Part shown: piece by piece, positions 12,801 through 21,907 of the stretch
Numbering within the stretch: position 1 is the stretch's first letter
Layout: each line of letters opens with the position of its first letter
Origin: a virus
Taxonomy: Duplodnaviria; Heunggongvirae; Uroviricota; Caudoviricetes
Reading direction: 5' to 3' (one strand)
DNA length: 24,131 nucleotides
Virus record (IMG/VR): IMGVR_UViG_2667528074_000002
Coordinates: 1-24,131 of that record
Notes under the pieces: generated by a model
What the model was told of the DNA's origin: nothing
Databases searched by the model: none
Seen by the model: the letters and a program-made list of their open reading frames with translations, nothing else
Position numbers and translations under genes: made by a program

Positions 12801-12891
12801 CATTCAGCAGATTTTTTACACGCGGAAGCTGCTCTTTAAAATCGGCGGTATCAATGCTTAAATCAATGACAAGGTCAGCAATCTGGTCCAA
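9868..12891 (-). CDS. H: Tail tape measure protein H
   Basis: 1007 aa, strongly alpha-helical/coiled-coil composition rich in Q/A/E/R, C-terminal Gly-rich region ending ...NNDGQNGQIGPEAMQAVYNLGKRAAADFMQQQSRDGGQLSGVYR like the lambda H C-terminus; positioned between G-T and M. Confidence 0.9.
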   Translation of the reverse strand: MDQIADLVIDLSIDTADFKEQLPRVKNLLNGTAKEAERAEARMKRFEESQKQAASATVIQTQAVVKHAQGHVSLAEDVERARLRMEALSRQMREEQVQAAALAAAQDKMAAAFYRQIDSVQQASAGLQELQRIQQQIRQARNSGGIAQQDYLALISEVTAKTRVLTQAEETATRQKTAFIRQLKEQTSRQKMTTTELLRAKAAQLGCSSAAEVYIRKMEKAGNTTHSLGLKSAAARRELGVMIGELARGNFGALRGSGITLANRAGWIDKLMTPKGLAVGGVIGGITAAVIGLGKAWMEGQEEGEAFNRQLELTGHYAGVTAGQLWALSKNLSGNGITQHAMAGSLAQVVGSGAFHGNDIGMVAKAAAQMERSVGQSVSDTISQFKRLKDDPVSAAKALDDELHFLTATQLEQIRVLGEQGRTSDAARIAMSALAEETGKRTSDIDNNLNALGSTLQTLSDWWKQFWDAAMNIGREDSLDAQIASLQEKIQRAKKFPWTKASTTVEYDQQQLDALQERKRQQDLQDAKEQAERNYQEQQKRRNAENAALNRMNETEAARHQREIARINAMQYADQAVRDAAIQRENERYEKAIKKKTPATRNDEATRLLLQYSQQQAQVEGQIAAARQSAGMATERMTEAHKQLLALQQRISDLAGKKLTADEKSVLAHKDELIQALTLLDAKQQELQKQTALNDLKKKTIQLTSQLAEEERAQRQQHDLDVAMAGMGDQQRQRYQSQLRLRQQYQQQLEQLERDSKQKGSYGSDAYRKAEQTLTDSLNRKLNENRRYWQQMDAAQGEWKNGAKRAFMNFTADADNAAGTAEQMFMSAFSSMGNGLATFVTTGKLNFKSFTSSVLSDMAKILAQATMMKAVKGIGSVMGFDFGDVKTNAEGGVYQSADLSRYSGTVVNRPTFFAFAKGAGVMGEAGPEAILPLRRGVDGKLGVVAATCGSGMVMFAPQYNIEINNDGQNGQIGPEAMQAVYNLGKRAAADFMQQQSRDGGQLSGVYR

Positions 12892-13210
12892 ATCTCATTC
12901 CTCCCGATATACCTTCCCCCAGATGCATCAGCTCTTCATCCGTGCGTTCAGGGATCACCCTGTCATCCGTAACCAGACTGAAATCATCCGCCGGAATACG
13001 TTCACCGGACACCATCTGAACCATCAGCGACTTCAGTGTGGAAATCTGTGCATCCAGCCAGATATCCCCGAAACTCTGCTTCCGGAAGAAATCCCCCCAT
13101 TCGCCCAGTTCTGACGCTGACATTTCTGATAACATCCGCCGCCAGTCTGCCCGCCGGAACTCACGGGCAAGCTGCATCACAAACTGCATCTCCCGCGTCA
13201 GGACTTTTCC
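12875..13210 (-). CDS. T: T reading frame, expressed as the G-T fusion via -1 programmed frameshift from G
   Basis: ORF in the -1 frame relative to G, open upstream through the G 3' end; heptamer G GAA AAG (13210..13204) lies 2 codons before the G stop; T frame continues ...GKVLTREMQFVMQLAREFRR... to a stop at 12875, overlapping the H start. Confidence 0.75.
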   Translation of the reverse strand, partial: GKVLTREMQFVMQLAREFRRADWRRMLSEMSASELGEWGDFFRKQSFGDIWLDAQISTLKSLMVQMVSGERIPADDFSLVTDDRVIPERTDEELMHLGEGISGGMRFGPDC

Positions 13211-13587
13211 GGTGTCAGGGGAACCTGTTCACCGTTCTGAACATCACCGGTGGAGACCGGCATACCACTCAGGGATAAAACCAGACTGCCCCCGTCGCCA
13301 AGCGCGTCATAAGACCAGGTGTTTTTTACATCCTCATTCAGCGCATCCACATCCTGTGACGGGTCCGTATTCCACATTGACCGGGAAACCAGCCAGGCAT
13401 TGATATCCATCCCCATACGCAGAAATTCAATCTGACGATCCGCCACCGGCATGGCATCATCCAGGGCGTCAAACTCAGCTGTCCGTTTCTGGACAAACGC
13501 CAGATACTCCACCCGCTGAAGTCCGGATAATTCCGTCAGTACCACAGACTGATTACCGTAGTTAAATGTGTCCTGTTTCAGAAACAT
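13198..13587 (-). CDS. G: Tail assembly chaperone G
   Basis: ATG at 13587 (MFLKQDTFNYGNQSVVLTELSGLQRVEYLAF...) with RBS GGAGGGG; resembles lambda gpG (MFLKTESFEHNGVTVTLSELSALQRIEHLAL...). The upstream extension in the track is not supported by an RBS. Confidence 0.85.
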   Translation of the reverse strand: MFLKQDTFNYGNQSVVLTELSGLQRVEYLAFVQKRTAEFDALDDAMPVADRQIEFLRMGMDINAWLVSRSMWNTDPSQDVDALNEDVKNTWSYDALGDGGSLVLSLSGMPVSTGDVQNGEQVPLTPEKS

Positions 13588-13599
13588 GTCCCCTCCGTA

Positions 13600-13625
13600 A
13601 ACAAAAAACCCCGGCATACCGGGGT
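13600..13625 (-). terminator. Intrinsic terminator between V and G
   Basis: Minus strand CCCCGG-TATG-CCGGGG (perfect 6 bp GC stem) followed by TTTTTTGTTT, located between the V stop (13644) and the G RBS. Confidence 0.6.
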
Positions 13626-15383: not shown

Positions 15384-15659
15384 TTACTCAATAAAGATCA
15401 TTGGCTTACCGTTAAAGCGTTCATGCCGTGTGACCGTCCATTGTTGTCCGTCATAAACAACGCGGTCCCCGCGCCGTGGGCGGTATCCCGGAGAAAACAC
15501 CACCAGGGAAAACGCCGGTCCGGAAAGCGCGTTCAGCTCTGCCAGTGTTTCTCCCGGGATCACCGTCATATCGACATCATTAATCGAAGCCATCTTTCCC
15601 ATTCTTCTGATCGTGACCGCATCCATACGCGCAGCCAGCCGGGAAAAAGGATCAGACAT
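15384..15659 (-). CDS. Head-tail joining protein, FII-like
   Basis: 91 aa; C-terminal ...RRGDRVVYDGQQWTVTRHERFNG resembles the lambda FII motif ...RRGDTLTIGEENFWVDRVSP; sits immediately upstream of Z. Confidence 0.6.
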   Translation of the reverse strand: MSDPFSRLAARMDAVTIRRMGKMASINDVDMTVIPGETLAELNALSGPAFSLVVFSPGYRPRRGDRVVYDGQQWTVTRHERFNGKPMIFIE

Positions 15660-15975
15660 TGAGTTTTACCGGCACGTCTTCTGCGCTGGTTCCGGCATCC
15701 GCCCAGGTAACCCCGACAAGCGGATCGGAACCACTGTTCGTCAGCTGAACTTTTCCGGATTTCAGATAAACCTTCTTACCCGTTTTCATGTCATCCGTTT
15801 TCAGCTTCGGCAACATAAATACACCCTCAGCTATCCCGTCCCCCGTTTCGCCCTTTGCAATATCGGTCAGTGCCACTGCAAAAATATCTCCCACCTGCAC
15901 CAGTTCACCACTGCTGATGTCTTTACCAGCAATGATCTCCACCGTTTTTCCTTCTTCCACAAAATTCTTTGCCAT
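15652..15975 (-). CDS. DUF2190-like small head protein (possible decoration/cement or head-fibre protein)
   Basis: ATG at 15975 (MAKNFVEEGKTVEIIAGKDISSGELVQVGDIFAVALTDIAKGETGDGIAEGVFMLPK...) with RBS GGAGA; Gly/Val-rich beta-type composition and MAKN start are typical of the family that follows the major capsid gene in HK97-like head modules. The track ORF begins earlier at a TTG. Confidence 0.6.
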   Translation of the reverse strand: MAKNFVEEGKTVEIIAGKDISSGELVQVGDIFAVALTDIAKGETGDGIAEGVFMLPKLKTDDMKTGKKVYLKSGKVQLTNSGSDPLVGVTWADAGTSAEDVPVKLNV

Positions 15976-16061: not shown

Positions 16062-18134
16062 TTACGCCGTACATTTCACCAGACCGCGGTGATCAACCGG
16101 TGCAACGCCGGCGTCAATACGCACTTTCGTGGTCACGCCATCCACACTGAAACCTTCCATCTGATCAATGTATGGCGTATCCACACCGTTGAGATAAGCC
16201 ACTTCAATCGTATCGGAGCCTTTGGATGCAGCCAGATAAAAGGTGGTCTGGCTGCTATCATCCAGACGCGGCTCAGCGATAACGGTCGCAAAATCTTTCA
16301 CTGGGTTAATAATACCGGCATTGACGTCTGCGCCTTTCACACTGGCAGAGCGGATCACCTGGTTAGCCACCGATTCCATCGCCGTCGGTACCAGCACGAA
16401 CGCAGGGCGAATATTCAGGTGACGCTCACCTTCTTTCTGAACACGCATCAACTGGCGGGCTTTATCCAGCGATGCCACGTCCATTGCTGCGCTCTCCAGT
16501 ACGTTTGCATGTTTCGCTTTATCGAACAGGCTTACATTATCTGTGGAGATTTTCGGGTTAGAGGTCAGAATGGCATAAACCAGATCGGCAATCGTGGATT
16601 TCGCCGCACGGCCCAGCTTCATCGGGACATCGGTCAGCATATTCAGATCATCATTGATAATGGCCTGACGGGTGATACTGAACAGTTCACCATAGGTCGC
16701 CAGTGCAATCGTGGCCTGTTTATCTCCGGTGGTGACGTACTTATATTCAGCCCCTTCACGCACCTGACGCAGAGAACTGAAGCCCCCCATTCCCACACGA
16801 TGAGCAATTTTAAAATCAGACAGCTGACCTTTCCGGGTCCACTGCTCGTAAGTCTCAGGGGCTTCTTCCCAGCCCTGCAGAATGGCTTTGTTCGCAACAT
16901 CCAGCAGAATATTACCGAAGTCAGACGAGCTGTGTGTGAATGCCGCACCAACCATCTGCATGGGGTTATAACCGGAAACCCCGATACCCCGTTCAGTCAG
17001 CGACATACGGGCATATTCGCGCAGGGTCATCCCGTTGTAGACGTTATCCTGTTCACGCTCAGCAAATCCGGCGCGTGCCATCAGCGCCTGTCGGATCCCG
17101 TCCCCCACAAAATTACCGTTGCCGGCATAAATATGGGACGGGGTATTTTTATTTGATGGTGAAAATTCCTTACCCATTTCATTCAGTAACTTCTCGCGAG
17201 CCTGCTCAAGCGAGCACTCCGGATCGGAAAGACAACTGGCCTGCAATGTCTGATAACGCCCGCCAAACATACCAAACAGATCATTAATACCACTCACGCG
17301 TGCTTTTTGCTCAGCCAGCACCTGTGCACGGATACTGCTTTCATCTGCGGAAGACGCATTTGCAGTGGTCACGGTACTTGTCGCGGTTGCGGCAACCTGA
17401 GCCGTAGTCTGCTCCTGTGTCTGAGATGCAGTATTTTTGTTTTCAGGCTCACGCGTTGCACTGTTGCGTGGCGGAGTAATCATATTTCGGATGGATTCCG
17501 GCATTTTTTTAAATTCCTCTGTACGTTTTGACTGAATACATGCCATTGCATTAACTTCCGGTGTCACCTGGTCAGCAAATCCGTGTGCCAGACATTCGGC
17601 ACCTGACATCCAGGTTTCATCCGCCAGCATGGCAGCAATTTCATCGGTAGTTTTTCCGGTTTTTTGCGCATAAGCAGGCAACAGGACCGATTCAACTTTA
17701 TCAAGCAGGTCGGCATAATCGCGCATATCATCCGCATCACCACCACTCACTCCCCATGGTTTATGGATCATCATGAATGCATTTTCAGGCATGATGACGG
17801 GATCCCCCACCATCGCAATGACCGACGCCATTGACGCCGCCACACCGTCGACATAAACGGTAATGGACGCACCATGTGTTTTCAGTGCATTAAAAATGGC
17901 GATGCCTTCAAAGACATCGCCACCCGGTGAATTAATATGGAGATTGATGTGGGTGATATTACCCAGCGCATTCAGATCACTGACAAACTGCTTCGCCGTA
18001 ACTCCCCAGAAACCAATCTCGTCATAGATATAAATATCTGCGTCACTTTTATGACCCGCCTTCATCCTGAACCAGGAATTATTCTTCAGGCTGGCCTTCG
18101 GTTCGCCGCGAAACCACGCGTTCTGTTTCAGCAT
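16062..18134 (-). CDS. Prohead protease (ClpP/S14-like) - linker/scaffold - major capsid protein, encoded as one ORF
   Basis: ATG at 18134 (MLKQNAWFRGEP...) with RBS AAGGAGGTGG. N-terminal ~200 aa carry ClpP-like Ser/His/Asp motifs (GVAASMASVIAMVGD, FMMIHKPWG, AHGFADQV). A Thr/Ala/Gln-rich linker follows (...TASQTQEQTTAQVAATATSTVTTANASS...), then a ~400 aa C-terminal region of capsid-like size and composition. No stop codon separates them. Confidence 0.8.
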   Translation of the reverse strand: MLKQNAWFRGEPKASLKNNSWFRMKAGHKSDADIYIYDEIGFWGVTAKQFVSDLNALGNITHINLHINSPGGDVFEGIAIFNALKTHGASITVYVDGVAASMASVIAMVGDPVIMPENAFMMIHKPWGVSGGDADDMRDYADLLDKVESVLLPAYAQKTGKTTDEIAAMLADETWMSGAECLAHGFADQVTPEVNAMACIQSKRTEEFKKMPESIRNMITPPRNSATREPENKNTASQTQEQTTAQVAATATSTVTTANASSADESSIRAQVLAEQKARVSGINDLFGMFGGRYQTLQASCLSDPECSLEQAREKLLNEMGKEFSPSNKNTPSHIYAGNGNFVGDGIRQALMARAGFAEREQDNVYNGMTLREYARMSLTERGIGVSGYNPMQMVGAAFTHSSSDFGNILLDVANKAILQGWEEAPETYEQWTRKGQLSDFKIAHRVGMGGFSSLRQVREGAEYKYVTTGDKQATIALATYGELFSITRQAIINDDLNMLTDVPMKLGRAAKSTIADLVYAILTSNPKISTDNVSLFDKAKHANVLESAAMDVASLDKARQLMRVQKEGERHLNIRPAFVLVPTAMESVANQVIRSASVKGADVNAGIINPVKDFATVIAEPRLDDSSQTTFYLAASKGSDTIEVAYLNGVDTPYIDQMEGFSVDGVTTKVRIDAGVAPVDHRGLVKCTA

Positions 18135-19584
18135 TACCACCTCCTTTATCGCTGGCCGGATCGGTATCAAACACCAGATCCAGCCTGCGGTTTTCATCAA
18201 TTTCGGCCTTGCGCCGACGTTTGACATCATCCGGATTACGACCACTGGCGCGTACCCAGTCTGATTCTGTCGCCGCACCACCTCGGATCTGGATTCTCCA
18301 GGCTTCAGCTTCCTTGACAGGATCGATCCACGGCATCACCGGACCAGAATATGTTGCGTTATATAACGTTTTCATATCGACATCCGGCGGGATTTTCAGC
18401 AACCCAGCGGCAACCACCATATTCAGCCATGCCCGGTACACCGGACGGGTTACAGCACCAATAAAACAGTCCTGCATGATCAGATAACCATCGGTGGACT
18501 CGACCAGTTCCTGTCGCTGGGCGCTGTAGGTACCGTTATAGTTACGTGCTGCACTGGAAAAACTCAGACGTGTGCCCGCCGCCACGGCCCGCAACTGACC
18601 ATTACGAAAAGTTTCCAGGTTAGGGTTAGGCCGATCGGATTTGACCATGCCAATATCTTCCCCCTTGCGCAGATCGTCATAAATAATGCCGGGAGTGATA
18701 TGCAGTTCCCGGTCATTATCTTTATTTGTCACAACGTCTTCATAATCCTGTCCGTCTCCTTTACGGATATACAGCCCCAGAGCCGCAGCAATACGCGCCG
18801 CTGTCAGTTCAGCATCTTCATATTCCTTAAGCGCACTGATCCGCATCAACACACCTGACAACATGGATGTACCACGCGTCTGATGCAGCCGGCGGGTAAA
18901 CTTCAGATGCACCATATTTTCAGCGGCGATCTCTTTGGTATCACTCTGTCGGCCGGTAACCGGATAATTTTTATAAACCAGGTATTTTTTCGGCCTGCCC
19001 CACTCATCCAGAAAAACCCCCTGATTCATTCCCGCGGACTCATCACTGAGCATGGGCACAAAATCCGGCTCTATTGCCTCGAGCCAGAAAGGCACGCCGG
19101 CAGTCCGGACCAGCCCGGCACCTGCGCCTCTGACCATCTGGGCAAACACTTCACCATCACGTAACCAGGTACGCAGCAGCAGACGCTCGAGCATGGGGCG
19201 CGTATACTGCCCGGTCACATCCGGACTGACAGACCATTCCGACCACAAACGACGGATAATCATTGCCACTTCTGTGGCCATATCACCGTTTTTCAGTAAT
19301 GGCTGGGGTTCAACAATGATCCCTTTTGCACCAATCACCCGCTCCTCAAGTTTGTCGAAAGCACCGATTACCAGGTCATGATTGATATCCAGAAAACGGG
19401 CCTGCTCCCGCAGGGAAACCGCCCCATACTTACTGAGCTGGTCAGCAGAACGGTTTTCCCGTCGGGCTTTGTGTGTGCGGGTGGGTTTTACGGCCTCATA
19501 AGCGCGAATTAACGCTCTTGAGCGCAATCTCGCCGCCTTCCAGCCTGGTGAAAAAACACCAATCACATCATCCAGAATTGCCAT
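18079..19584 (-). CDS. Portal protein
   Basis: 501 aa ORF between the gpW-like gene and the protease-capsid gene; start overlaps the W-like stop; acidic C-terminus. Assignment rests on size and conserved gene order, not on a recognised motif. Confidence 0.75.
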   Translation of the reverse strand: MAILDDVIGVFSPGWKAARLRSRALIRAYEAVKPTRTHKARRENRSADQLSKYGAVSLREQARFLDINHDLVIGAFDKLEERVIGAKGIIVEPQPLLKNGDMATEVAMIIRRLWSEWSVSPDVTGQYTRPMLERLLLRTWLRDGEVFAQMVRGAGAGLVRTAGVPFWLEAIEPDFVPMLSDESAGMNQGVFLDEWGRPKKYLVYKNYPVTGRQSDTKEIAAENMVHLKFTRRLHQTRGTSMLSGVLMRISALKEYEDAELTAARIAAALGLYIRKGDGQDYEDVVTNKDNDRELHITPGIIYDDLRKGEDIGMVKSDRPNPNLETFRNGQLRAVAAGTRLSFSSAARNYNGTYSAQRQELVESTDGYLIMQDCFIGAVTRPVYRAWLNMVVAAGLLKIPPDVDMKTLYNATYSGPVMPWIDPVKEAEAWRIQIRGGAATESDWVRASGRNPDDVKRRRKAEIDENRRLDLVFDTDPASDKGGGNAETERVVSRRTEGQPEE

Positions 19585-19802
19585 CAGAACCTCGCCAGTT
19601 TATACCCAGGATCCCCCCGCCGCCGCGCAGTCAGGGCAGCAAGCCGCCGCTCCCACTCCTGGCGGCCCTGTCGGATCTCGGACAAATTTTCCATGGTCAT
19701 CTGCTGACCATTAAAGGTGACGGATTTACCGTCCAGCACAGCCATTTCCGCATCGATATAACGCTGAATCACGGCTTCAATATCATTCTGATTCATAACC
19801 AT
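19584..19802 (-). CDS. gpW-like head-tail connector / head completion protein
   Basis: 72 aa between the terminase large subunit and portal, as lambda W is between A and B; C-terminal ...RRLAALTARRRGDPG resembles the lambda W C-terminus (...TQRRRGPAGF). Confidence 0.6.
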   Translation of the reverse strand: MVMNQNDIEAVIQRYIDAEMAVLDGKSVTFNGQQMTMENLSEIRQGRQEWERRLAALTARRRGDPGYKLARF

Positions 19803-21907
19803 CCTCCGGAAGTCACCCAGGGGTTGTCCTCATCGGGTGCCATTTTTTTTCGTTTCCTTTTTCTGACAGGCGGAAGTGCCGGCTCCGGCAGAACAGGTAG
19901 CTCCACGTTGTCACTGACGCACTCCAGCCAGGTTTCCCGGCACGCCCACTCCGGCGCATCAGGCCACTGAATTTTCTCGTACCCATGCAGAATGACCAGC
20001 GCCTCGGCATACACCATCAGGTCAAAGGCTTCGTTGGCGCCGCGCCCCGGCTTACTCCATTTCCCGTCACTGCTCCGCTCTTCATACGTCAGTTCGTCGT
20101 AAAACCAGCCCCCCAGCCAGTCAGGGAAATGCACATACCCCGGCCCCGGGGAGTCACGCCATAACGCATTATTCACCCGGTCTTTCAGGGCATCAGTCTG
20201 AAGAAGCCAGAGAGGAACATCACCCGAAGCCTGCGCCCGTCGCCCCGTTCGTCCGGTGTTATCCGGAAATGTACGGGTGATCAGTTTTGCGCGACGTATG
20301 CTGTCGCCCTTAAACAGATAAATACGCTTTCCAAGACCATCAAGACGGCAGCGACGCCAGAATTTATAGGCATTATCTGTCACCCCGTCTTCACCGCCGG
20401 AGTCCACCGCCATTGCCATTACCCGCATGCGCTGAGAAGGGGCGGAGGCCAGCGGCCAGCTTTTATAAAAAACATCCGTCAGCAGAACATCCCAGTCCTC
20501 CGGATAACCGGCAGGGTCAATACGCAGACTTTCTCCGTTATTGTCACAACGCAGCGACTGCGTGATGTTGTAACGATCAACTATCCATCGCTCGCCGCGA
20601 CTACCATAGCCTGTTACCTGAACCACAAAACGGCGATGACGCCCTGCCTGCACATCCACTGTCGCCGCAAGGAAATTAACGCCATCCGGTACACTGCGGT
20701 GAGGAACGGGCTCTGCCCGCTGCTCAAGCAGTTCACTTTTACGCTGTTCCGCCGCTGAACGGGGCAGATAGGGGCGTCCGATATCGGTATTCACCACCGC
20801 CTTCAGGGTCTCTTCACTTCCGGTTCGCTCATACTCTTCTTCTGCCGCCAGCAGCTTAAAAATCAGTTGTTCCCAGGTCTGAAACGCAGCAGCCGGCCCC
20901 TCCATCCAGAATGACGCAATCCTGGAATTTCGTGGTGTTCCGACGATACTGCCGTCCGCCGCGACCCGTTCACCTTCCCGAAGCCAGATCCCCTTGTTAT
21001 TCAGTTCGCGTTTCTGCTCCGGAGCAATCAGCCCGCGACAGTGCGGACACATCAGACGTGCAGCCTGTCCGGCCGCCACAAAATCGGGGTTATTCCGGTA
21101 ACCGGTCATGTTATCCATTACCGGCTGAAAATATTCCCCACAGTGCGGACACGGCCAGTACCAGCGACGGCGATCGCCACGGTTATAAAGGGACAGGATC
21201 CCCGTGGTTGGCGGTGCCTCATGTGCGCCACCACAGCGCCATTTGGTGTCGGTGATATCCCGCCCGGGCGAACTCTCAACCAGCGTCATCCCGGAAGACA
21301 TAAAGGTGGTGGTGCGTTTTGATGCCAGCGTGAAGGCATCCCCTTCACCGTCAACGTTCTCAGGGAAACGGTCATAATCCGTCAGCGCCACACGGCGGTA
21401 ATCCGAGGAAGAGAAAACAGTGATTGACGGCCAGCCAATCTTCAGGAAAGAGCCGTCAAGAAACATTTTATCGTGGACGTTGTTGTCATTGCGGGAAGGA
21501 CTCAGGCGTTTACTAACCTCCGGGCTGTGACGAAACGTCCTGGAAAGACGCGTTCTGGAATGCTCACGCGCCTTGGTTTCGGTCATCTGTACCACCAGCA
21601 TATCAGCCGGATCGCAGATAACACCGTACACAATCCAGCCGTCAATCAGCCCCTCTGTTTTCCCTGTTCGGGCAGGACCAACAAACACTACGGCATCATA
21701 TTCACGGGCAGATAATGTATTTATAGGGTCAATCATGTAGGGTGTCAGCGATGACTCCCACGGACCAGAAGTATTGGCTCCCCGTGGTACCCGCATATAA
21801 CGCCTGATGGCTTCCGCTACTGGCAGCCGGCTGGGTGGGCGAAACAGCGAGGCCACCTCGCGCCAGATATCGGATGCGCGGCTATGGCTCTCGTTCACCT
21901 GATTCAC
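19793..21907 (-). CDS. Terminase large subunit (GpA-like)
   Basis: 704 aa; P-loop VVFVGPARTGKTEGL near the N-terminus; size and position (after the small subunit, before W-like and portal) fit a lambda-type terminase ATPase/nuclease; start overlaps the small-subunit stop. Confidence 0.85.
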   Translation of the reverse strand: MNQVNESHSRASDIWREVASLFRPPSRLPVAEAIRRYMRVPRGANTSGPWESSLTPYMIDPINTLSAREYDAVVFVGPARTGKTEGLIDGWIVYGVICDPADMLVVQMTETKAREHSRTRLSRTFRHSPEVSKRLSPSRNDNNVHDKMFLDGSFLKIGWPSITVFSSSDYRRVALTDYDRFPENVDGEGDAFTLASKRTTTFMSSGMTLVESSPGRDITDTKWRCGGAHEAPPTTGILSLYNRGDRRRWYWPCPHCGEYFQPVMDNMTGYRNNPDFVAAGQAARLMCPHCRGLIAPEQKRELNNKGIWLREGERVAADGSIVGTPRNSRIASFWMEGPAAAFQTWEQLIFKLLAAEEEYERTGSEETLKAVVNTDIGRPYLPRSAAEQRKSELLEQRAEPVPHRSVPDGVNFLAATVDVQAGRHRRFVVQVTGYGSRGERWIVDRYNITQSLRCDNNGESLRIDPAGYPEDWDVLLTDVFYKSWPLASAPSQRMRVMAMAVDSGGEDGVTDNAYKFWRRCRLDGLGKRIYLFKGDSIRRAKLITRTFPDNTGRTGRRAQASGDVPLWLLQTDALKDRVNNALWRDSPGPGYVHFPDWLGGWFYDELTYEERSSDGKWSKPGRGANEAFDLMVYAEALVILHGYEKIQWPDAPEWACRETWLECVSDNVELPVLPEPALPPVRKRKRKKMAPDEDNPWVTSGGWL

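Follow-up and report, generated by a model that had tools for sequence, protein, structure and literature searches.

A Gifsy-2-type protease-scaffold-capsid fusion gene in a lambdoid prophage head module and a candidate internal start within it

The fusion gene and its place in the head module

The window analysed here is a stretch of 24,131 nucleotides of tailed-phage DNA (positions 1 to 24,131 of IMG/VR record IMGVR_UViG_2667528074_000002), and all coordinates below refer to it. Its minus strand carries a complete gene (16062..18134) of 690 codons plus a stop codon, with the ATG at 18134-18132 and the stop at 16064-16062, encoding a tripartite capsid precursor of 74.9 kDa. The open reading frame (ORF) list and the translation confirmed that this is a single uninterrupted frame, as the first-pass annotation had described it. 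The ATG is preceded by AAAGGAGGTGGTA, in which the Shine-Dalgarno (SD) sequence AAAGGAGGT for the full-length product (18139..18147, minus strand) could be read directly within the 3′ end of the portal gene. Its predicted duplex with the anti-SD sequence (-14.8 kcal/mol) was strong, and was the strongest among all in-frame starts of the fusion ORF.

The upstream gene (18079..19584, minus strand) encodes a lambda-family portal protein (PF05136, E = 8e-81) and overlaps the start of the capsid gene by 56 nt. The downstream gene (15652..15975, minus strand) encodes a capsid cement, or decoration, protein of 107 amino acids (PF09956, Phage_cement_2, E = 1.2e-19), which is 62% identical to the product of the Gifsy-2 gene directly after the Gifsy-2 capsid gene. 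A Pfam scan of the neighbours placed the fusion gene between the portal and cement genes of a lambdoid head module with the order TerS, TerL, W-like, portal, fusion gene, cement protein, adaptor, Z, U and V, all on the minus strand. The synteny of this module is shared with Gifsy-2 and with E. coli prophages.

The whole protein scored 993.4 bits against NF045540 (scaf_prot_MCP1, [quoted passage not shown]), above the curated cutoff of 475, and the match was end to end, residues 32-689 covering profile positions 2-651 of 652. It is therefore a member of this family, from which nothing distinguishes it; the annotation pipeline PGAP gives near-identical E. coli genes the same product name. The protein also matched PHROG 133 over its full length (1176 bits). 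We estimate at about 90% the probability that this is a tripartite capsid gene of the Gifsy-2 type, belonging to the head module of a lambdoid prophage, and that it follows the general maturation pathway set out below. The reading of the ORF as a covalent protease-linker/scaffold-capsid precursor agrees with the curated name of NF045540 and with the published account of Gifsy-2.

The novelty that the first-pass annotation had implied does not hold. Such a fusion has already been described and named and is very common: of 5426 complete E. coli genomes, 2071, over a third, contain a match that RefSeq lists under the product name of NF045540. The identification in itself thus matters little, because the arrangement is in the literature, its Gifsy-2 version has been studied structurally, a curated NCBI model covers it, and enterobacterial prophages carry it extremely often. 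It does call for caution in annotation, since the older labels "Clp protease ClpP", "protease/scaffold" and "Nu3" mask a major capsid protein. In one automated survey of capsid proteins, none was found for Gifsy-2 (PMC8814770).

A long ORF of this kind could stem from an error in sequencing or assembly, or from a frameshift near the domain junction that joined separate protease and capsid genes into a pseudogene, and a check for frameshifts near 17300-17500 had been proposed on first inspection. The comparative data already refute this. In a set of 80 independent loci, drawn from different species of Gammaproteobacteria (among Enterobacterales, Pasteurellaceae, Pseudomonas, Shewanella, Psychromonas and Photobacterium), 76 had one uninterrupted frame. 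Thousands of full-length database proteins have the same architecture, including those of the isolated phages mEp460, cdtI, Ayreon, Gifsy-2 and Pseudomonas vB_Pae_CF140a, and a dedicated hidden Markov model has been curated for them. Nothing was found in favour of an artefact or a pseudogene; the other four of the 80 related loci (L043, L044, L046 and L078), which are truncated or interrupted, show that decay happens in some prophages. On this evidence, the fusion ORF is not a frameshift artefact, and we give that explanation practically no weight. Conservation of one frame across so many genera indicates, at the level of sequence, that the fusion is ancient and under selection.

Protease, tether, scaffold-like segment and capsid domain

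Residues 32-190 (17565..18041, minus strand) form a ClpP-related head maturation protease domain of the MEROPS S14 type, as judged from NF045542, PF00574 and an alignment with the solved ClpP 6hwm. The Pfam domain CLP_protease (PF00574) spans residues 45-191 (E = 1.8e-36), and NF045542 (Clp_rel_HeadMat) gave 222.6 bits against a cutoff of 120; the protease part of the polypeptide as a whole takes in residues ~20-195. The predicted catalytic codons on the minus strand are those of Ser101 (17832-17834, in GVAASMASV), His124 (17763-17765, in MIHKP) and Asp188 (17571-17573, in FADQV), which align with AASM, IHxP and (L/F)xDQV of 6hwm. None of the three residues varied among 18 close homologues, and in a broader set of 78 at least 95% of the sequences retained them. 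The Ser/His/Asp triad of a ClpP-type serine protease that had been read from the sequence alone is therefore borne out.

The domain is followed by a conserved basic tail, residues 196-228 (AMACIQSKRTEEFKKMPESIRNMITPPRN; 17451..17549, minus strand; pI 10.3). A stand-alone protease of 240 amino acids from Vibrio phage K304 aligned to fusion residues 20-232. The K304 gene after that protease showed no relation to residues 211-690 when the two were compared, and the protease module is thus mosaic with respect to the capsid family.

Older records name proteins of this kind "ATP-dependent Clp protease proteolytic subunit". This name, together with the homology to a solved ClpP, would suit a bona fide ATP-dependent ClpP subunit, that is, a host-like protease moonlighting in the prophage. 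However, the domain fell far short of the cutoffs of all ClpP equivalog models (for TIGR00493, it scored 59 bits where 308.6 are required), yet it exceeded the cutoff of NF045542, the model for "head maturation protease, ClpP-related". Its location between the portal and cement protein genes also argues against a host-like subunit, and so do its closest stand-alone relatives, which are phage head maturation proteases. By sequence, the N-terminal domain is ClpP-related but not a bona fide ClpP, and we consider a true ClpP subunit highly improbable.

Next in the chain is a low-complexity tether rich in Thr, Ala, Gln and Ser, residues 229-263 (17346..17450, minus strand), delimited by its composition, its hypervariability and its low pLDDT. 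These 35 residues (T9 A8 S4 Q4) varied strongly among homologues in both length and sequence; the Thr/Ala/Gln-rich linker noted earlier is thus present. The tether leads into a helical scaffold-like segment, residues 264-323 (17166..17345, minus strand), in which AlphaFold predicted helices at residues 265-288, 295-303 and 309-323. The motifs IRAQVLAEQKAR and LFxMFGG are conserved in the alignment of this segment.

Two AlphaFold models were obtained. In the full-length model, built on an alignment of 18 homologues at 74-97% identity, the mean pLDDT was 34 and the helices at residues 262-320 alone were confident, the scaffold-like segment reaching 70-82. When the alignment was widened to 67 sequences at 51-99% identity, that segment was again helical (pLDDT 70-85), and residues 264-690 reached a pLDDT of 62, which suffices for the fold class but not for domain boundaries or a cleavage site.

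The major capsid protein region comprises residues ~334-690 (16065..17135, minus strand), as located by Pfam, a PDB profile search, hhalign and Foldseek. Within it, Phage_capsid_4 (PF25209) covers residues 394-687 (16074-16955, minus strand; E = 6e-54), and the Mu-like gpT family PF10124 matches as well. A PDB search with a profile of 45 sequences retrieved the capsid proteins of JBD30 (8rkx and 8rkc, E = 3e-10) and also 9jod; a search of the PDB with the single fusion sequence returned ClpP entries only and no capsid protein. Comparison of the capsid region with Mu gpT by hhalign gave 94%. The top 19 Foldseek matches were all phage capsid proteins of the HK97 fold, with TM-scores of 0.2-0.36 for a model of moderate quality. 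These four lines of evidence support the identification of the C-terminal part as a capsid protein of the Mu gpT/HK97-fold kind, as had been proposed from its size. A stand-alone Bordetella phage capsid protein aligned from fusion residue 366, and homology brackets the N-terminus of the mature capsid protein only to between about residues 334 and 394. The E-values of the protease and capsid domain matches rule out chance.

A candidate nested start at Met211

Within the basic tail of the protease, a GAGGA sequence (17515..17519, minus strand) lies 10 nt upstream of an invariant in-frame ATG, that of Met211 (17502..17504, minus strand). These could serve as the SD sequence and start codon of a nested scaffold-capsid product of 480 amino acids and 52.0 kDa. 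This residue was Met in all 78 homologues, down to ~50% identity. The Glu206 codon was GAG in 65 of 65 homologues, while GAG has a share of 38% gene-wide and of 67% in the next-highest Glu column. Where Glu206 was replaced, the codons CAG, AAG and GGA retained AGGA, and the third base of this codon was 97% conserved. Among codons other than those of Met and Trp, third-base conservation was at least 93% only at K203 and E206, against a gene mean of 0.51. Codons 205-221 also had the lowest predicted mRNA opening energy in the ORF (3.6-4.9 against 8.26 ± 1.65 kcal/mol; mean of 26 homologues). The gene thus carries, by these sequence features, a predicted in-frame internal start with a ribosome-binding site of its own after the protease domain.

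A comparable site was found in the distant Paracoccus-type fusion family. In all 10 sequences, AAGGAG, AAAGGG or AAAGGA stood 6-7 nt before an invariant ATG just past the protease domain, although the amino acids differ.

Two other Met codons of the window gene, Met115 and Met137, are each preceded by an SD-like sequence. They were rejected as internal starts because these motifs derive from invariant Gly/Asp codons in the catalytic domain and show no excess synonymous constraint.

The conservation around Met211 might have a different cause, with only the full-length 75-kDa polypeptide being made and every capsid subunit bearing its own protease. The GAGGA-N10-ATG sequence could then reflect a protein-level constraint on Met211-Pro212, a factor binding site, or an mRNA or ribosome-pausing element, the last perhaps helping the protease to fold ahead of the tether's emergence. 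Several observations are consistent with this. The duplex predicted for the internal SD (-6.0) is much weaker than that of the upstream SD, and no nested CDS was annotated in the database records examined. Met211 lies in a tail common to stand-alone proteases, so its conservation could indeed be at the protein level. The geometry of the procapsid does not require a nested product either, because 415 protease-scaffold parts would fill only ~36% of an interior of 23-nm radius. However, codons for Glu, Gln, Lys and Gly alike keep AGGA, which is conservation of nucleotides rather than of an amino acid; the site falls where the mRNA of the ORF is least structured; and the Paracoccus-type family, which is independent and distant, carries another, no less SD-like motif in front of an invariant ATG at the corresponding point of its architecture. 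We therefore regard production of the full-length chain alone as unlikely, though as an alternative to be taken seriously.

A nested 52-kDa product is suggested because Met211 is invariant, GAGGA is conserved at the nucleotide level, the mRNA is least structured there, and the distant family has an equivalent. On these sequence features, the GAGGA and Met211 pair is probably a functional start. That it is functional and also not already described for the Gifsy-2-type and Paracoccus-type families is a tentative proposition, to which we give somewhat less than even odds. If the start is used, one frame would give two products, the 74.9-kDa protease-scaffold-capsid chain and the nested 52.0-kDa scaffold-capsid chain from Met211. 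The protease-less product would be abundant and the full-length chains a minority, so that the dosage of protease per procapsid would be set by translation. A functional nested start would be of modest importance. It would explain how ~415 proteases per prohead are avoided despite the covalent link between capsid protein and protease, and it would be a widespread further case of the nesting of protease and scaffold genes in tailed phages and herpesviruses.

Proposed maturation and comparison with known systems

A maturation pathway can be proposed from what is known of Gifsy-2, HK97 and lambda. Assembly of the capsid domains on the portal would yield a T=7 procapsid in which the N-terminal parts face inward, and the helical segment may there play the role that the delta domain has in HK97 or Nu3 in lambda. 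Confinement would activate the protease, which would remove and digest the protease, tether and scaffold parts and leave a capsid protein of ~32-39 kDa. DNA packaging would then expand the shell, and the cement protein from the next gene would stabilise it. For this element, we infer cleavage, the cleavage sites and the stoichiometry of the products from the known systems.

In the literature searched on this gene type, experimental work was found only for Gifsy-2, along with a survey of Paracoccus. The tripartite capsid gene of Gifsy-2 was reportedly studied by Effantin, Figueroa-Bossi, Schoehn, Bossi and Conway in 2010 in Virology 402:355. The window protein is 68% identical over 688 residues to Gifsy-2 STM1034.3n (STM1033 / STM1034.3n), with the same three-part architecture and length class (696 amino acids in Gifsy-2 and 690 here). 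The neighbours are also the same: an upstream lambda-family portal gene with an overlapping start, a 107-aa cement protein, a Gifsy-2-family adaptor, Z, U and V. The window gene is nevertheless a separate allele, differing in the tether sequence and in the N-terminal 20 residues, and nothing functional sets the two apart on present evidence. Three articles describe fused protease and coat genes, a T=7 capsid and a trimeric decoration protein for Gifsy-2 (PMC12315714, PMC8814770, PMC8538268).

Fusion proteins of Paracoccus prophages, such as p30 of phage vB_PsuS_Psul1, were reported by Decewicz et al. 2019 (PMC6536676). These proteins, represented by NF045541 (scaf_prot_MCP2), share the ClpP-tether-Mu-gpT architecture and a length of ~700 amino acids with the window protein. 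They differ in being only ~31% identical to it and in having a tether that is acidic rather than Thr/Ala-rich. The window protein scored 400.4 bits against NF045541 (cutoff 525), with only residues 227-687 aligned, and is not a member of that family.

HK97 (gp4/gp5) likewise has a scaffold fused to the N-terminus of its capsid protein, the delta domain, which is removed by the prohead protease, and it has an HK97-fold shell; its protease, however, is encoded by a separate gene of a herpesvirus-like family. HK97 is without a decoration protein and forms chainmail crosslinks instead (PMC8538268). A BLAST comparison of HK97 with the fusion protein detected no sequence similarity, and HK97 Prohead II was among the Foldseek matches of the capsid model. 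In Mu (I/Z/T), gpT is a detectable homologue of the capsid domain by the PF10124 and hhalign matches given above, and annotation places an internal start, that of the scaffold Z, within the protease gene I. Mu differs in that its protease-scaffold gene and its capsid gene T are separate.

In lambda, the C, Nu3 and E genes occupy the same position, flanked by the portal gene B and the tail genes. There, one frame encodes both protease and scaffold with a nested internal start, Nu3 lying within C, and a decoration protein, D, is added to the shell and stabilises it. The lambda protease belongs to another family, and the capsid protein has a gene of its own, E, and is of a different sequence family. 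The order also differs: the decoration gene D precedes E, whereas the cement gene (PF09956) follows the capsid gene here. Were the Met211 start used, the ratio of protease to capsid protein would be controlled as in lambda C/Nu3, Mu I/Z and herpesvirus UL26/UL26.5.

A tripartite capsid gene in a single reading frame

The tripartite gene lies on the minus strand at 16062-18134, with its ATG at 18134, its stop codon at 16062-16064 and 690 sense codons in the ORF list and translation, exactly as the first-pass annotation had it. Its frame extends upstream no further than a GTG at 18281. Initiation is nonetheless assigned to the ATG at 18134, since it follows AAAGGAGGTGGTA, for which the predicted anti-SD duplex (-14.8 kcal/mol) was by far the best among the in-frame starts. 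The start is identical in the E. coli RefSeq annotation, and from it the gene shares its first 56 nt with the end of the portal gene.

A scan with one genome per species gave 80 loci (48-89% identity) from Enterobacterales, Pasteurellaceae, Pseudomonas, Shewanella, Psychromonas, Photobacterium and others. All three parts were in one uninterrupted frame in 76 of the loci, and the fusion was also found in isolated phages, among them mEp460, cdtI, Ayreon, Stx2 phages and Pseudomonas vB_Pae_CF140a. A frameshift artefact, which the first-pass annotation had proposed to check for, is thus excluded. The gene was 5′-truncated or interrupted in only four loci (L043, L044, L046 and L078), presumably decaying prophages, which implies that the intact frame is held by selection elsewhere. 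Enterobacterial-type tripartite genes also occurred in two metagenome-assembled genomes, a 'Bacillota bacterium' (L002, JAEWTL010000010.1; 89% identity) and a 'Geobacteraceae bacterium' (L010, DAINBV010000046.1; 72% identity). Both contigs probably stem from enterobacterial prophages and were put in the wrong bin.

The tripartite fusion has been described and curated before and is very common. NCBIfam NF045540 matched the protein end to end, with 993 bits where the cutoff is 475. By megablast, 2071 of the 5426 complete E. coli genomes carry the gene, under the product name 'ClpP-like prohead protease/major capsid protein fusion protein'. Its identity to the gene product of the Salmonella phage Gifsy-2 was 68% over 688 residues. 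Effantin et al. reportedly divided the Gifsy-2 protein into an N-terminus resembling ClpP, a middle domain of some 200 residues that might serve in scaffolding and, at the C-terminus, the capsid protein; they are said to have used HK97 gp5 and lambda gpD to model maps at 12 Å. In the literature, the Gifsy-2 protease and coat genes are fused (PMC12315714, citing work of 2010), its capsid is listed as T=7 (PMC8814770) and the phage is listed with those whose threefold axes bear a trimeric cement protein (PMC8538268). The same architecture has been independently reported in Paracoccus prophages (PMC6536676).

Protease, tether, helical segment and capsid domain

Pfam placed CLP_protease at residues 45-191 (E=1.8e-36). 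Ser101 (GVAASMASV), His124 (MIHKP) and Asp188 (FADQV), the residues picked out from the sequence at first reading, aligned with AASM, IHxP and xDQV of the solved ClpP 6hwm, the ClpP catalytic positions, and all three were invariant among homologues. This part passed NCBIfam NF045542, "head maturation protease, ClpP-related". A genuine ClpP was rejected as all ClpP models failed (for example, TIGR00493 with 59 bits against 308.6).

The Thr/Ala/Gln-rich linker proposed earlier is present as a tether at residues 229-263 (T9, A8, S4 and Q4 of 35), hypervariable in length and sequence. It is followed at residues 264-323 by a segment of three conserved helices, the only region confident in both AlphaFold runs. 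In Vibrio phage K304 (L083, 2468-4394), a stand-alone protease of 240 aa was 46% identical and aligned to residues 20-232, indicating that the protease module ends at about residue 230. The separate capsid gene after it had no detectable similarity to residues 211-690, which shows that the ClpP-like module recombines among different capsid families.

Phage_capsid_4 matched residues 394-687 (E=6e-54), with a secondary match to Mu-like gpT. Searched with a 45-sequence profile of residues 325-690, solved structures gave matches to "Mu GpT domain" capsid proteins, namely 8rkx/8rkc (E=3e-10) and 9jod (E=9e-9), and with this profile hhalign gave a 94% probability against Mu gpT. With a widened alignment, AlphaFold returned a moderate model of residues 264-690 (pLDDT 62, pTM 0.48), for which the best 19 Foldseek PDB matches were all tailed-phage capsid proteins of the HK97 fold. 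The JBD30 procapsid came top (E=3.5e-4, probability 1.00), followed by phiXacJX1, SU10, a capsid-forming PICI, HK97 Prohead II, SPP1, D3, P22 and YSD1. TM-scores were low (0.2-0.36), so the model backs the fold class and not fine detail. A C-terminal region that does not model as an HK97-fold capsid protein, the outcome named in the first-pass annotation as a refutation, was thus not what was seen. No other capsid protein candidate was found within the head module of the window. The observation of a protease-linker-capsid ORF is confirmed, and its interpretation is supported.

Late operon and proposed maturation

The genes on either side belong, with the tripartite gene, to a minus-strand lambdoid late operon. 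A gpA-type large terminase (19793-21907), a small ORF at the W position and a lambda-family portal (18079-19584) come before the tripartite gene. After it lies a 107-aa Phage_cement_2 protein (PF09956; 15652-15975), 62% identical to the product of the Gifsy-2 gene at the equivalent position; in lambda, by contrast, D comes before E. The E. coli cement orthologue is still merely 'DUF2190 family protein' in RefSeq, although 'Phage cement protein' is the current Pfam name of the family. The head-tail adaptor position is taken by a 91-aa ORF (15384-15659) that matches the Pfam family PF13856, which is named 'Gifsy-2' and carries the description 'ATP-binding sugar transporter from pro-phage'; its E. 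coli orthologue is 'DNA breaking-rejoining protein' in RefSeq. For a small virion protein, both of these seem to be misannotations inherited from older records. Beyond lie gpZ, gpU and gpV and, between the tail tube gene and a tape-measure ORF of about 1007 codons, two small ORFs side by side (13198-13617 and 12875-13189). This pair presumably occupies the position of the lambda G/G-T tail chaperones, made in lambda by a programmed -1 frameshift.

At least 12 database proteins of 1135-1159 aa (P0048, P0052-P0061, P0072 and P0073) join portal and protease-scaffold-capsid; the corresponding overlap in the window is 18079-18147. P0048 follows the portal frame to ...DTDPASDKGG and then the capsid-gene frame from about residue 3, placing the frame switch exactly at the AAAGGAGG/ATG overlap. 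Such fusions may reflect a one-base indel allele that recurs in a lineage of defective prophages, or else the same assembly error made several times.

Starting from the observed architecture, intact catalytic triad, capsid homology, conserved single frame and cement gene, assembly and maturation can be pictured by analogy with Gifsy-2, HK97 and lambda. Precursors would co-assemble into a T=7 procapsid with their N-terminal parts inside, the helical segment serving as an attached scaffold. Confinement would activate the protease, everything upstream of a cut point between residues ~334 and ~394 would be removed, and the shell would then expand and bind the cement protein.

A probable nested start at Met211

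The ATG of Met211 (17502-17504, minus strand) was invariant in all 78 aligned homologues, unlike the region around it, which was only moderately conserved. A putative internal SD, GAGGA, lies 10 nt upstream. Codon 206 was GAG in 65 of 65 sequences with Glu there; for Glu codons in these genes overall the share of GAG is 38%, and in the next most biased Glu column it is 67%. The other sequences had Gln (CAG), Lys (AAG) or Gly-Asp (GGA GAC), with AGGA or GGAG kept in all. When every codon was scanned, only two other than Met and Trp reached at least 93% third-base conservation (gene-wide mean, 0.51): Lys203 (AAA) and Glu206 (GAG), which lie shortly before Met211. The Lys203 codon (17526-17528), eight codons upstream of Met211, was AAA in 67 of 78 sequences, and may be part of an A-rich standby/enhancer element serving the putative internal start, or unrelated.

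Averaged over 26 diverse homologues, codons 205-221 had the lowest predicted opening energy of the ORF (3.6-4.9 against 8.26±1.65 kcal/mol) and held 13 of the 15 lowest positions. The distant Paracoccus-type fusions likewise have an invariant ATG just past the protease domain, with AAGGAG, AAAGGG or AAAGGA at -12 to -7 in 10 of 10 sequences, though the encoded residues vary. The invariant Met211, the synonymous constraint, the accessible mRNA and this parallel together point to an internal ribosome-binding site.

Several points weigh against it. The internal SD falls short of the upstream one in strength, Met211 lies within the tail common to stand-alone proteases, and none of the records examined annotates a nested CDS. 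Nor does geometry require a nested product, since an interior of 23-nm radius would be only about 36% full with 415 complete N-terminal parts in it. On balance, we put the chance that the Met211 site functions as an internal start at roughly two in three. The product of initiation there would be a scaffold-capsid protein of 480 aa and 52.0 kDa that lacks the protease. This probable nested start, a modest addition to the known fusion, would resemble the nesting of lambda Nu3 within C and of Mu Z within I.
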